Source: Hydrolagus colliei
Taxonomy: Eukaryota
Direction: 5' to 3'
Assembly: GCA_035084275.1 (NCBI GenBank)
Contig: CM068752.1
Coordinates: 8,308,001-8,372,000, forward strand
DNA length: 64,000 nucleotides
Shown: positions 40,319 through 62,311 of the stretch, piece after piece
Layout: each line of letters opens with the position of its first letter
Numbering within the stretch: position 1 is the stretch's first letter
Position numbers and translations under genes: made by a program
Notes under the pieces: model-generated
Databases searched by the model: none
What the model was told of the DNA's origin: nothing
What the model saw: the letters and a program-made list of their open reading frames with translations, nothing else

Positions 40319-40440
40319 TCACTGGATTATTCATTCAGAAAATGTGTTGGTCCAACCCTTAGATAACTCCAAACTATGTTGAAGTGTTCAGCCCTGATCC
40401 ATTCTCCCAGGCTTTGGGCTATGAGGTGTGCTGCGGTGAG
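40319..40440 (+). pseudogene. Degenerate relic of the 3' end of a Pcdh variable exon
   Basis: From 40363 reads ITPNYVEVFSPDPFSQALGYE versus IPPNYVEVFGGDPLSQSFRYG in intact exons; an in-frame TAG replaces the Gln codon just before; no recognisable EC domains upstream. Confidence 0.8.
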
Positions 40441-41614: not shown

Positions 41615-42815
41615 GAGTGGCACCTCAACCTTCAAGGCACAGTCCTTGACTGGTTTCATTCCTACTCACCATTTACACTTTGTATCTTCCAATGGTTTTT
41701 CCTCAAATCCCCGCACAGTTTCTCATGGCATCCCTCAGGGTTCTGTCCTCGGCCCCCTCCTTTTCACCATTTATACGCTCCCTCTGGGCGATGTCATCCG
41801 CAAACATGGGGTAAATTTCCACATGTATGCGGACGACACCCAGCTGTACCTTTCTGCCTCATCCCTCAACCCCCAGACCATCGATGTTCTGACAGCATGT
41901 CTGTCCGACATCGAGTCCTGGACGAGGGAAAACTTCCTGCAATTGAACGTGAGTAAGACCGAGGCCCTCCTGATCGGCTCAAGCCAGTGCCTCCGCACAT
42001 CGGGTGCTGCCAGCCTCAACATCCAAGGCTGTACTCTCCACCTCACAAAGTCAGTCAGGAACCTTGGCATCACGTTCGACCAAAAACTCTCCTTCCTCCC
42101 CCACATCCATGCCTTGACCGGCAACGCTTACTTCCACCTGCGCAACATTGCCAGGCTGCGCAATTATTTTACCCCTCACGCTGCCGAAACACTCGTGCAC
42201 GCGTACATCACCTCAAGGCTGGACTACGGAAACTCTCTCCTCGTCAGCCTCCCCAGCTCCTCCATTCACAGGCTGCAGGTCATCCAAAACTCTGCAGCCC
42301 GTGTATTATCCCGCACCCGCCTCCGCGACCATATAACCCCCACCCTCACCCGTCTCCACTGGCTCCCCATCCTCCAGAGGATCGAGTTCAAGATCCTCAT
42401 CCTCACCTTCAAGGCCTTACATGGCCTTGCCCTGCCCTATTTAACCAATTTACTCTCCCCCTACAAGCCCACCCGAACCCTCTGTTCAGCAGGACTTGGC
42501 CTGCTCCAAGCCCCCCGCCTGAACCGCCCCACCATCGGAGGCCGGGCCTTCAGTTTTTCTGCTCCGACCCTATGGAATTCCATCCCCTAATCCCTCCGTC
42601 TTGTTTCTTCTCTTTCCGCTTCAAGGCCGGTTTGAAGACTTTCCTCTTCATCCGTGCCTTTTGTTCCACCCCGAATTTTTTGACCTCCCCTACGTGTTTC
42701 ACCCCTCCCCGTACACTTCCCTCCCAGCTCGGGTCACACGCCTCCTGTGCAGCGCCTTGAGACGTCCTCCCGACGTGAAAGGCGCTTTATAAGTGTAATT
42801 TGTTGTTGTTGTTGT
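41615..42815 (+). mobile_element. 5'-truncated non-LTR retrotransposon (L2/CR1 group) with reverse-transcriptase C-terminal half and (TTG)n tail
   Basis: [16 protein letters not shown] and [10 protein letters not shown] motifs, [23 protein letters not shown]; premature stop at 42590; 3' end ...gtgaaaggcgctttataag...ttgttgttgttg. Boundaries approximate. Confidence 0.92.
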
Positions 42816-45891: not shown

Positions 45892-45950
45892 GTGAAACAA
45901 CCGAACACTGAATGGCGTCACTCACAGGCTCATCGAGTGGAGGTGAACAG
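45892..45950 (+). CDS. Pcdh constant exon 1 (59 bp)
   Basis: Strong polypyrimidine acceptor ...tttctttgtag|, donor AG|GTAACT; phase-0 start matches all variable donors; encodes VKQPNTEWRHSQAHRVEVN(S), similar to mammalian gamma QAPPNTDWRFSQAQR and alpha PRQPNPDWRYS; 59 bp is the known constant-exon-1 length. Confidence 0.93.
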
Positions 45951-47683: not shown

Positions 47684-47961
47684 TTCCCAGTATTTGGAGG
47701 AGGAAGTTGTGCAGAGAGATGTGCAGAGAGATGTGCAGAGAGAGGCGCAGAGAGAGGCACAGCGAGAGGCACAGCGAGACGCACAGCGAGACGCACAGCG
47801 AGACGCACAGCGAGACGCACAGCGAGACGCACAGAGAGATTCCCAGCGAGAAGTCCAATGTGAAGTGCAGCATAACGTGCAGCGTGACGTCCCCCGGGAG
47901 TTGGAGAAAGATCCTGGAGTTCCACGGAGAGCCGTGCCTGCAAAACCCACAGCCCACCCTG
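47684..47961 (+). CDS. Pcdh constant exon 2 (278 bp, contains coding 12-bp tandem repeat)
   Basis: Acceptor attccttctgcag|, donor CTG|GTCAGT; begins phase 2 (matches exon 1) and ends phase 1; encodes SQYLEEEVV(QRxx)15PRELEKDPGVPRRAVPAKPTAHP. Confidence 0.78.
47712..47891 (+). repeat. 12-bp minisatellite, 15 units (consensus CAGMGAGAYGYR), inside putative constant exon 2
   Basis: Visible tandem cagagagatgtg / cagcgagaggca / cagcgagacgca units, degenerate at the 3' end. Confidence 0.95.
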
Positions 47962-50130: not shown

Positions 50131-53100
50131 TTGTCTCAATTGGTGATGTAATCAATATGGAACTGAGCAAAATACTTGCGAAATCACAGTTTTGACCCCA
50201 GTGGTTCCAAGCTTTGACAGGAAACAGCAGGATTTTGGCTGCCATTCACCATCAGCCACCTCTGGTGGAAATTGAAACTATGGCCATTACATCAGGACAA
50301 AGAGATTGTTTCCCCCACATCCTCTCAATTGGGATGTTTCCATTGTCAAAAGCCTTTGACTGAAAATAAAATGATTTTTGTTGGGGTGGGGTTAGAAAAA
50401 GGGTTCATTCATTGTGTCACAGACCCTGTGAGCGGATCCAGGTAGATGCTTCTTTCAGTTCAGACTGGAGTATTTATTTTAGCCTGGATCTCGCCAGTGT
50501 TTAGTCAGACACTGGCAGATTGTGTTTAAATTTCTGCACAAGTTGAATCTCTAAGGGATAGACAAGCAGTGAATAGGGATGCAGTCAAAGTCCAGCATTG
50601 CTCTGGCACTTGTTCTGCCAATCCTGTTATAAATTATAAACACTTCAGCCCTTGACATCCATCTGCTAATTTGGAAAGCTACTTTTGCTGCAAGCAATTT
50701 AATGTCAATTAGATGCAATTGCATAAACATGAGTGCACACTCCTACCCTCTCTGCCCACAATCACAAACCAAACCATAGCGTTAACCCTCAAAGCAGAGT
50801 CGTTCTGCAGCGTTGCGATCTCTGTGATATTCATACTTATTCTGTAATCTAAGGGTTAACAGCTCTATTTAGACCACTTTCTCCCCAGTGGATTGAACAC
50901 CCCAGTGATGTTTGAGTGTATGACACATTCATTTCAGTTGCCATGTTCTGATTGTTTGTTTCATCCGAATTCAAAATCGTAACAAAGCAAATTCAAAGAA
51001 AAAAGTTCAACGACAGTGCCCATTTCAAAACACCCTAATTGTGTTTTGATGCACTGGCCTTTAATCTTTCTGTTAGCGCTTTCTCCCCCTCCCCTTCCCC
51101 CCGCTCTTCTCAGACTGATTAAACAATCCAATATTTTATTTCATATAACAAGAACAATTGATGCCGCCTATTAGAGTTTGGGACAATGTGAACCACTTGA
51201 CTGGCGCAATGTTATTTATTGCGTAGAATGAGGTTGAAGTAAAAAAAAGCTTGGATAGAGTTGAAAGGGAATGATGAAAGATCAAGCGATAATTCTGTAC
51301 AACAAACAGTTTCCATTAGAAGGGCCAGCAGTGGCCCTTGGGGGGAAAATAAATGATAGTTTTTATGTCGTGTTTCTTTAGAATTCGTAGAAAAGCTACA
51401 GCAGTTTTGCAGTGAGGATATTAAATTGTTTTCAATGACTTGAAGTTAAGGCATGACATTGAGTCAATGCTTACATGATCTTGGCATTGATATAAGAGGT
51501 TGAGCTCATTGGAACATTCCTGGAACCCAAGTTATTTTGTAATTCTGAGAGAGGGGTCTGGCGTGCTAGTAAGTTACAATTCGAGAAAGTCAACTCACCA
51601 ATTTTGAAACGTATCGCTGTCTGGCGATCTTTCCTGCTGCTTGCCCAGCTAGGATCACCACCCTCTACTTATTCCTCTGGCTTAAAGGGTTAGCTAGAGC
51701 TGGCCAGGAGGATTTCCTTCCCCCCCACCCAGATAGACAGGTCTGTCCTCCCAGGTCCTGCCAATGAGCCAGGCTGCACTATTATATCTCCAGCAATGCC
51801 CTGGAATACTATGGACCCACCTGGTTCAGGAACAGGACTATTGAGACCGCCACAGAGAGCTGGCTCAATTCTGGCATTCTGTTGCCAAATTTGTCACCTT
51901 GGAACCAGTTCAGCTCCAAGGAGACCCCACTTACCACCCCACCCAAGGAGGATAGTCACTCATTGGTTGTTCAACATCTGATAAGCATGGATTTGAGGCC
52001 TCACTAGGTGAGGGGTAAAATTGGTTTGAAACATTTGAATAAAATTTTAATTAGCAAAGTAGGGGCTTGGGGGCAGAGCATTTGTGGAAAGAGGAACGTG
52101 ATCTCCGTGAACCAGAAAAAAAGTCACAATGTGTTAATTAGCATAAGGAGTGGGTAAAGAAACTGCAGCAAGATAACAGGAAATAGGAATATTTCACCGC
52201 CAGATTTTCTGGAGTGTTTGACTCTCCAACTCTATAATTACGATCTCAAGTTCCCTTTTGGAATCATACATTTGAGTTCATTTTCTAAAAGAGGACTCGA
52301 GTAAATAATCCCGAAAGGTTTCATGTTAAAAAGAAACAGCATTTATTCATCTTGAGCACATTGAGGCTGCCTTTCAGTGTTTGAAGTTATTTCTGTTTCA
52401 TCCAACGATGGCCTGGATCATTTCATCGTAACTGTGTATTATTTTTATAAATCTGCAGTTTGCTCGTCTCTGCAGTTCTCCTGAAGTGAATGTCAACATC
52501 TGGGGTTAAAAGCAAAGACGGGATTTAATGTTAATGTTAACACTTAATGTGCCTGTCAGTGCCATCTGTTTCTAGGACAGATTTTATCACCCACAAAACA
52601 AACTTGAATAGTACAGTACTAAATATACAGCATAATAATAAAGAATCATTATGTTTGACATAGTGCCTTGCATATCAGAGGGATATCTCAAAGTGATTCA
52701 CAGGATAGCCTGTAAAGTGTAGTTGTCAAATTTAAATATCAGGCAAAATTTCTGCACTTTTCAAAAAGAGCCAGCTTCTAAATTGAGACGGAATCTAACA
52801 ATTTCTTCATAATTGTAGAAAATTTTAAGAGAATGATGTTCAGGCTAGGATTGTATGGAATTTCAGTCCTCAGGTTACAATAGCGCACACCACCTGGCTT
52901 TGCTACACGAAACCAAAACGCAAACTCCTTCCCCTCACACGAGTTTTGGGCATCATTGACTATTATGAGCAGACATAGTCTACCTGCCCTCTTTCTTTGA
53001 AAGGCAGACATAATGATCTGAATGCAATGTCTTATCTTATCTTATCCTATCGCAGACTCAATTTACTGGAGTTTATTTAGAGCAATAACTTAATGTAATT

Positions 53101-58278: not shown

Positions 58279-61124
58279 GTGAGCACCCTTCCCCTCATCC
58301 AGTCTTGGTGATGTTCCTCACCATGGCACTTCTCATGGCTTTTAAGTAAGAAAGACTTCTTTGACTTATCGTAAGTGATTACTAACACATATAATGTATG
58401 AAGCGCTTACAGAAGTCTCAACAATGTGATAAGGTTGCTGTGTCAAATGCAAGGATTGTTATTATTATTATTTCCCAACTTTGTTCGTTGAACCATTAGG
58501 ACCAGATCCATGTCCTTTACTCCGCATGTGCTCTGAGTGTTTGGATCTGGAATGAATTCCTGAATGACTTGGACGGGACCAAACGGGTTGCTATTAACCT
58601 CACAAAGCTCTGTTAGCCGCGCAGACGTTCATTAGCTTTATTTCTAACGAGTGATTACTTGTTCTTTGCAACCACCTATCACTCTCGGTTGCCTCTCCGT
58701 TTCTCTCAAGAATATCAAAAACACAAAGCCACCCTATATATTAACCAATCCAGGATATGTCTGTCAAGGTGAGAGAGGTTATCTTGCTCTCTCTATTTAT
58801 TGTTGCAAAATCCCCTCCCCATAATGGAACTCTGCCAACATCCTATATTCCAGCTGAGAGCCTGCGTATCAAGTCAGCAGGCATTATCATGTTCAAATAT
58901 CAGTGGAGGATCGGATTCAAACTCAGTTCAGTGCAACCAGTGTTCCAACATTAGGACTTCCAGACTGCCTCAGCTCAGTGGCCTTTCGCTTCACCAAGTA
59001 AATTAATCAATTGGCATATTAATATTAATTAATATGTCAACGTAACAAACATCTACCATGGGAGATAGACAAACTGTGCAGACTCAGGTTTGTAGCTTTC
59101 AGAAGAGAAAAGGTGGACAGACAATTTAAGGCTCACTGCACAGCACAGAGTGCGGTGAGTGTGTAAATAAAGATTGATATCGGCAGTGGGGACAATCTGG
59201 GCGAATTCAAGAGGAGCTCGACAAATTGTTTGGCAAAAGAATGAAATTGAAGAGCATATGAGCAACATTTAAAGGGAAAGAAAATAATTCTAATGGGCAC
59301 AGTGAGAGAGTAGGATAATAAGATTGGACTGAAATAGTGAGCAAGCTAGCTGGCGAGAGATTTTCCCTGCAATTTCCATGTCAGCAAGTTAAAGAATCTT
59401 TTTCTTCAATGATATCCAACCAAGTTTAAACATATGATGCACTGTTTTTAATAACCTTCTCTTATGAAAGTCTCATTACTGGTGAATAATCCCTTTCTCT
59501 CTCCACACTGCCAAGCTATTTCTGTTGCCCTCTGGCTAAGCACAAGCTTGAAGAAGCTTGCTCGCCTATGTGTGTGTGTATGTGATTTCAGATCCCCTCC
59601 ATTTGCAGGGTGTGCTTTCAGCAATCGGAGAGAGCTACAGTGCTCTCAGTCACTGGCTGGGGGCAGAGCTCTGCTTCACAAATCCTACCCGTTCAGCCAT
59701 ATCCAATTTAATCAATGCTTGTATGGGAATACAATCCATATGTTGATTTATAAGGGGAATAAGCAAAATACATTTGATGTGTTAACCTATGAGAATGTCG
59801 AGACCGATTAGAATGAGTTGCTTAGATCCATATTGTTCACAGAGGCTATTCCCAGTACCCTGAAGGAATGATCAGGTATTAATCCTTTCATCTTGGAAAT
59901 GTCATCCGGAATGATTGGAGCGAGTTTCCCTCTTGTGAGCAGGAACATTGCCTTGCTCTCTCCGCGGATATGTATTAATGCAGCCACCATGCACTTACCT
60001 CCCAGAGGCGTTTATGGTGTGCTCTTGTTATTTCGGAGTCTTAAGACTGGTTCACATGGTTGTTAATTTCATGGTACATTTTGCCCACATACTATTGCAC
60101 AATGGGTCTTTTGGCTAAGTTAGGTTGGTGTGGGAAGCTTCAGTGAGATCAGAGTGTCAAGTGAGTTTCAAGACGGACATAGGTGGGTGTATGGCGATAG
60201 GGTAGAGCAGTGAGATTGAATGAATAACTTGGTCTGAGACACTCAATGGGCCAAAAAATGGCCTCCTTACCTGCTAACAAATGTCTGTCATTCCTTGTTG
60301 TTGGCCAATAAGAGCATTTATTTTTCTTTGTTTTGGTGAAATATTTATCGATAATTTTCCAAACGCAGAAAACAAAACAAGTCGGGGGCTGATGATGGCA
60401 CACTGGGTATTATGAAGGGTGATGCAGAGGCTGGCAGAGAGGGTCACACAGCCTGGTCACAGCTATAAAACAGCTCACATGATTGTGGATACACTACAAG
60501 GTCATGATTGAATCCATCCTGGGGAACACTGACATCTCTGGCAAGGAAAGGCACACACGAGACAGCTTGGAATACCATGAATAATTAAAAAGGGTATACA
60601 GTATTTTGGTTTCTTCGTCTAAGTCAGTGCTTATGGGATCTGTTTAAAGGAGGCTGTAGGACAAATCATCCAGGTATGGAGGCTGACCTCAATATTTCCT
60701 CTTAGCCTGTGTGGACACAGACAGTTAAATGATGTTTATGGTAAAAAAAATTCGACCGACTGATGTTTAACATGTACCACAGATTCGGAGGCTGGATTGA
60801 GGAGGGCTGCTGTGTTGGCTTCACGAAACCAATTCCCTCTCGACACTACCTCGCTGCATGAATTGTTCACTTATTCACCAGCTTCTGGGTAAAGAAATTA
60901 AATCTGCACTCCCTGTTTACTCCCCCCTCTTTGGGACTTAACACCACACACCCAGATCTCTGGGCTACATCGCACATACTATTGCAGTCAGGTCACTCGA
61001 CAGCCCTTGAAAAATCTTTTCCAGCATTGCGCAATCTCTGCCAATAACCCTCTCTCGTATATATGCAGCAAATGTGTTTCAGTTGTTAATTTCTTCCTAG
61101 TCGCTTTGTCTGGGTGGCTCGGTC

Positions 61125-62096: not shown

Positions 62097-62311
62097 AGGG
62101 CATCGAATCATCTCCAGTTCGGGCAGCAGGAGAGCAGAGCTGGACGCCCAGACTGGCCGTGAAGTTCCCCCCGCATCACCAGGCCACTGACTATCTACAC
62201 AATGTCTACATCCCGGGAACAACGGCCACCCTCTCCGGGAAATCCACCTCCGAACGCGAGGGGAAGAAATCCTTCATCACCTTCGGGAAGAAGAAGAAGA
62301 GCGGTAAATAA
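62097..62311 (+). CDS. Pcdh terminal constant exon 4 (coding part)
   Basis: Acceptor ttgtgccctaacag|, phase 1; encodes (E)GIESSP...DYLHNVYIPGTTATLSG...SFITFGKKKKSGK*; DY..NVYIPG..ATL is gamma-constant-like, while FITFGKK plus a Lys-rich end is alpha-constant-like. Confidence 0.92.

Follow-up and report, generated by a model that had tools for sequence, protein, structure and literature searches.

The repeat-bearing constant exon of the chimaera protocadherin-nu (Pcdh-nu) subcluster described here encodes a longer, tidier version of an old repeat, which is most likely a flexible spacer and not a new structural device. We analyzed a 64,000-nucleotide stretch of DNA (the window), which corresponds to the Pcdh-nu subcluster of a chimaera near Callorhinchus, placed by similarity only. 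A 12-bp unit is repeated in frame 15 times in the second constant exon, and the resulting peptide is probably a spacer, largely flexible and tolerant of length changes, that separates the membrane from a C-terminal WIRS motif.

Organization of the Pcdh-nu Locus

The window contained tandem large variable exons, each encoding an ectodomain, a TM segment, and a short tail, together with shared small constant exons orthologous to those of C. milii nu (tblastn, all exons). The variable exons were ~2.5 kb each and all lay upstream of the constant exons. In the elephant shark, nu is one of four subclusters, which were defined by Yu et al. 2008, according to passages in PMC2764143 and PMC4978886. The following features were identified, in window positions:

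1728-39884, + strand: 11 tandem protocadherin variable exons, with ORFs of 824-906 aa, each ending in a phase-0 GT donor
45892-45950, + strand: constant exon 1, 59 nt, phase 0 to 2, matching C. milii Pcdh-nu at 17 of 19 aa
47684-47961, + strand: constant exon 2, repeat-bearing, 278 nt, CAG acceptor and GT donor, phase 2 to 1, 92 full codons
58168-58278, + strand: optional constant exon 3, 111 nt, phase 1 to 1, included or skipped in database isoforms
60783-60888, + strand: candidate frame-shifting cassette exon, 106 nt (3n+1), with CAG and GT sites, 34/34 aa matching the end of a TrEMBL model from C. milii
62097-62311, + strand: last constant exon, coding part in the main frame, 97% identical to C. 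milii Pcdh-nu, Pfam Cadherin_tail PF15974; its second frame stops at 62188
62273-62290, + strand: FITFGK motif (from the translation), six residues identical to the WIRS motif of mouse Pcdh-alpha

The FITFGK comparison used the mouse Pcdh-alpha WIRS motif as it appears in part of PMC6047886, and the constant domain of mouse Pcdh-alpha likewise carries this motif near its C-terminus. At E values up to 1, neither exon 2 nor exon 3 matched any Pfam family.

The gene is an added member of a known subcluster, and its family, exon, and repeat are all in public protein records. The C. milii nu protein names in those records were reportedly given by Yu et al. The C. milii proteins nu1-nu17 (e.g., B0YN97 / ABV59360.1) matched the window in subcluster, exon, flanks, and repeat type as well as in the last exon. 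The novelty that the sequence-only reading had seen in the repeat did not survive this comparison, as deposited C. milii Pcdh-nu entries such as ABV59360.1 already contain it. No paper on the repeat was found in the literature searched, which lay outside most subscription papers and Yu et al. 2008 with its supplement.

The 3' halves of several variable exons between 9741 and 39884 fell into near-identical groups (e.g., 23294, 26765, 30248), a pattern suggestive of recent duplication or gene conversion; in contrast, little conversion has been reported among elephant shark protocadherin genes. Directly after the last variable exon, at 40355-40430, a short degenerate remnant resembling the conserved juxtamembrane motif of the variable exons was visible by eye. 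A 255-aa ORF fragment at 41823-42590 is presumably the C-terminus of a LINE reverse transcriptase, and related SINE/LINE tails were dispersed in the introns.

The Repeat Array in Exon 2

Three features were located within exon 2:

47712-47891, + strand: coding minisatellite, (Q-R-D/E-A/V)15, 15 x 12-bp units, in frame
47769-47834, + strand: perfect 66-bp core, the site of ~5 units gained relative to C. milii
47856-47879, + strand: units 13-14, in which a Cys unit directly precedes an Asn unit, used here as a landmark and present in 14/14 arrays

The 15 tandem coding units first read from the letters were confirmed by translation, by TRF, which placed the array at 47708-47851 with a period of 12, and by a shuffle test, in which period-12 identity was 0.85, whereas 2000 shuffles averaged 0.29 and did not exceed 0.40. 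The units run head to tail, preserve the frame, and match one another above chance. The Q-R-D/E-A/V pattern holds overall, although three units deviate from it (QRDS, QCEV, and QHNV). The description of identical central units and degenerate edges was also correct: units 6-10 were identical, the edge units carried 3-6 mismatches to the 12-base consensus, and units 3-5 and 11 were imperfect copies. Ongoing slippage in the repeat core is plausible. Seven in-frame CGA codons occur in the repeat (47712-47891), and each is a CpG site at which one transition can create a stop codon, cutting short all isoforms.

Splicing and Inclusion of Exon 2

The sequence-only reading had argued from splice phases that exon 2 must be included for the tail to be read in frame. 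The phases (2 to 1) were confirmed, but the inclusion is not obligatory on these grounds, as exon 1 joined straight to the last exon leads into the second frame of that exon and yields a 50-aa tail. This second frame ends 94 of the 132 nu-type tails we collected, where it is reached via an extra exon, and most annotated isoforms of sharks and rays use it. Within the last exon (62097-62250), the second frame is open for ~50 codons in the elasmobranch isoforms seen and stops at 62188 here. Dual coding of the last exon is possible.

Annotations from other species indicated that exon 2 is coding and common to isoforms, as had been claimed. Among the 218 proteins examined, 132 had a nu-type exon 1, and all 132 continued into the repeat exon; this count includes P0208, which was missed by the search pattern and carries the repeat exon behind a 9-aa extension. 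Two of the three protein retrievals used words from exon 2, which biases the set toward inclusion. Retrieval by the last exon alone found the repeat exon in 11/11. No isoform skipping exon 2 was seen among the 132 nu-type tails.

The 106-nt candidate cassette exon, a fifth constant exon that the sequence-only reading had overlooked, would cause the last exon to be read in its second frame, with loss of both the FITFGK motif and the Lys-rich end. Sharks and rays have a ~100-nt exon at the same position with the same effect on the frame, and no significant similarity was detected between the two exons (7/7 comparisons at chance). The predicted effect parallels the long and short tail isoforms of Pcdh-alpha, which arise through alternative splicing according to a section of PMC7339444. 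A shark-type frame-shifting exon was also considered at 51258-51353 on a weak tblastn match (E 0.009) and was rejected for its wrong exon order and poor acceptor.

Copy Number, Conservation, and History

In-frame change of copy number, which had been anticipated from the repeat itself, was found between species. The 14 arrays comprised 15 units in the window, 10 in C. milii, 11 in each of 11 shark and ray species, and 13 in the skate Rhinoraja. Relative to the Cys-Asn landmark, elasmobranch arrays had six units before and three after (five after in Rhinoraja), and the chimaera arrays had seven or 12 before and one after. The five extra units of the window copy were central and Ala-rich, with the best five-unit gap against C. 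milii falling after unit 4 (37/40 aa identical). The two chimaeras also differed in proline content, the C. milii array having one Pro and the window array none.

A contig from a relative (organism B) aligned without gaps to 47714-47913 with 11 differences, two of which were listed individually, and was unbroken through the center, which needs at least ~14 units. The length gain was therefore probably shared with this relative, and the perfect core would be younger. Past 47913, the same contig continued with 333 letters that did not fit, and the break fell at a GATC site, which is possibly a ligation junction.

Shark and ray Pcdh-nu orthologs (RefSeq entries named beta- or gamma-like) resembled the window in exon 2, the tetrapeptide array, and the Cys-Asn landmark, and differed in that their arrays were decayed, with 2-4 Cys. 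Prolines numbered 1-5 in 13/13 orthologs, and skates had also gained Gly. Orthologous elasmobranch units were 74% identical compared to 44% for non-orthologous units, and the elasmobranch array is therefore fixed. Shark-versus-ray identity was lowest in the repeat (65%), with 88% in exon 1, 77-79% in the repeat flanks, and 95% in exon 3. Departures at unit positions 2 and 3 were all R>C/H (58/58) and D/E>N (19/19), counts that are non-independent; these are the type expected from CpG decay, as judged from the proteins. Length was exactly 11 units in 11/12 elasmobranchs across the shark-skate split, dated to ~237 My in part of PMC11406177. This retained length, together with the landmark common to all 14 arrays, suggests more constraint than a plain spacer needs. 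A synonymous excess among the window units was not significant (6/13 vs. 9/36 possible, p = 0.08).

The array occurs in both chimaeras and sharks/rays and therefore predates their split. These lineages separated more than 400 My ago. Outside the nu subcluster, bony-vertebrate Pcdh-gamma and -delta and a skate sister subcluster (P0127) have a homologous exon 1 and last exon and a second segment that starts alike, but this segment is only ~29-30 aa long and contains no array (boundaries by homology). The skate sister subcluster carries a two-unit seed at the same offset (p ~0.002), reptile delta-type tails carry one at offset 1 (p ~0.01), and none was detected in gamma tails (p ~0.6). No array was present in the gamma, delta, or sister-subcluster tails; of the 24 matches in an exhaustive search, the one with an array was a nu tail. 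In support of the earlier remark that no such repeat was known in mammalian Pcdh tails, the gamma and delta tails retrieved lacked it, and Pcdh-alpha tails are not known to carry one. QRDA-like repeats in unrelated proteins (18/26 matches, nine inspected) were set aside as convergent.

From these comparisons, the array appears to have grown from a two-unit seed still visible in the sister subcluster and Pcdh-delta. The 12-nt motif, present as about two units in a short ancestral exon, would have undergone in-frame amplification before the chimaera lineage diverged from sharks and rays. In the latter, the array is fixed at 11 units and has decayed. Along the chimaera line, about five Ala-rich units were added in the middle, as shown against C. 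milii, and renewed slippage is the presumed cause.

Predicted Structure and Alternative Explanations

The sequence-only reading had proposed a long single helix or an unusual coiled coil. A helix was modeled for the window copy: AlphaFold2, using a 13-row alignment, drew the window exon as one helix over residues 2-67 with a mean pLDDT of 75.6, four of five models above 70, and block pLDDT of 81-93 over the first 60 residues. This structure is not conserved, as all 13 orthologs carry prolines, C. milii has its Pro at the matching place, and the catshark exon under the same protocol was broken into two short helices (pLDDT 61.4). AlphaFold2 also draws confident helices in disordered regions such as alpha-synuclein, as noted in sections of bioRxiv 2022.02.18.481080, which weakens the model as evidence; the same source offers polyQ helices as a precedent. 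A Pro-free, Ala-rich 15-mer in this lineage could in principle form a continuous monomeric helix of ~60 residues (~9 nm), a stiff strut braced by i+3 D/E-R pairs and Gln side chains. Favoring it are a mean helix propensity that was the best of the 14 arrays (0.38 vs. 0.50-0.74 kcal/mol), the lack of Pro and Gly, and 11 opposite-charge and no like-charge pairs at i+3. The window copy resembles single alpha-helix (SAH) domains in being charged, Gln-rich, Pro-free, and predicted as a long helix, the last for this copy but not for the catshark ortholog. Text in PMC5812594 describes SAH domains as ~80% E/K/R with Asp rare, and one predictor it covers disregards like-charge i+4 pairs. By that standard, E/K/R made up only 30% of the window array, rising to a nearby 72% (43/60) when D, N, and Q were counted; Asp outnumbered Glu nine to five; and the i+4 pairs were 23 like and zero opposite. 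As SAH domains pair opposite charges at both i+3 and i+4, only half of their charge pattern is present, and the array is not SAH-like in this respect. We consider such a lineage-specific strut unlikely. The coiled coil fared worse, although a small hydrophobic residue does recur at every fourth position of the predicted helix. The hydrophobic moment peaked at 1.63 at a period of 4.0 and reached 0.16-0.38 at 19/5, 15/4, 11/3, and 7/2, outside the periodicity of ~3.33 to 3.9 expected of coiled coils; the portion of Hartmann et al. (PMC4786415) bearing on this places the upper limit near 3.9 and 4.0 outside the accessible range. Ala and Val would also make a weak core, and the orthologs contain prolines. 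A two-copy complex prediction of residues 1-75, with the alignment not used, scored 0.00, gave no verdict, and counts neither for nor against oligomers. An unusual right-handed coiled coil that oligomerizes the tails is very improbable.

Alternatively, the array could serve for multivalent interaction or for modification, either through a Cys/His landmark that is palmitoylated or binds metal or as a low-affinity repeat helping tails to cluster, to name two examples. Consistent with this, a Cys unit is followed by an R/H-Asn unit in all 14 arrays, in one register in all 12 elasmobranchs, with Cys and His four residues apart, and the 11-unit length was kept in 11 species. However, Cys, His, and Asn would be the expected CpG decay products of the unit, shuffling the units reproduced the Cys-Asn adjacency in 7-37% of trials per array (species being non-independent), Pfam gave no match, and the PDB yielded four compositional matches with E values of 10 or less, led by the RE/RD repeat of protein Red (E 0.009). 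We regard an interaction site as quite unlikely. The count of 15 might instead result from misassembly around a short perfect repeat. In two samples, one of which may be the source of the window, the short-read contigs broke at the perfect core, so that their units could not be counted, and the contig of a third reached the exon start only; rough loop depth in the two samples was 4.0x and 3.2x against an expected 3x, too noisy to call a longer allele. Against an error, the core spans only 66 bp, units 3-5 and 11 are imperfect copies, and the organism B contig needs at least ~14 units. An assembly error is thus highly improbable.

Proposed Function

The flexible spacer remains our preferred reading. 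With exon 3 skipped, the repeat is separated from the membrane segment by ~142 residues and from the WIRS-type motif downstream by 82. The peptide would be mostly flexible with partial helicity, and selection would act on the frame, on the register of four residues, and on the balance of charges, and not on the fold or the exact length. Through its motif, the nu tail would recruit WAVE. A bolder proposal treats the ancient coding minisatellite as a length dial on all Pcdh-nu tails: the chimaera copy, having lost prolines and gained Ala units, would be a new type of continuous period-4 single helix held by i+3 salt bridges and a Gln ladder, and its copy number, which may be polymorphic, would determine how far the WAVE-recruiting motif can extend, for the entire subcluster at once. 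We judge this combination decidedly unlikely.

The comparison across species shows that the common tail of a clustered protocadherin can hold a variable-length, low-complexity insert of 40-60 residues. The history of this insert is traceable: it began as a seed of two units, became fixed in sharks, and grew again in chimaeras. The resulting natural series (10, 11, 13, and 15 units; 0-5 Pro) is suited to testing the role of tail length and stiffness in protocadherin signaling.
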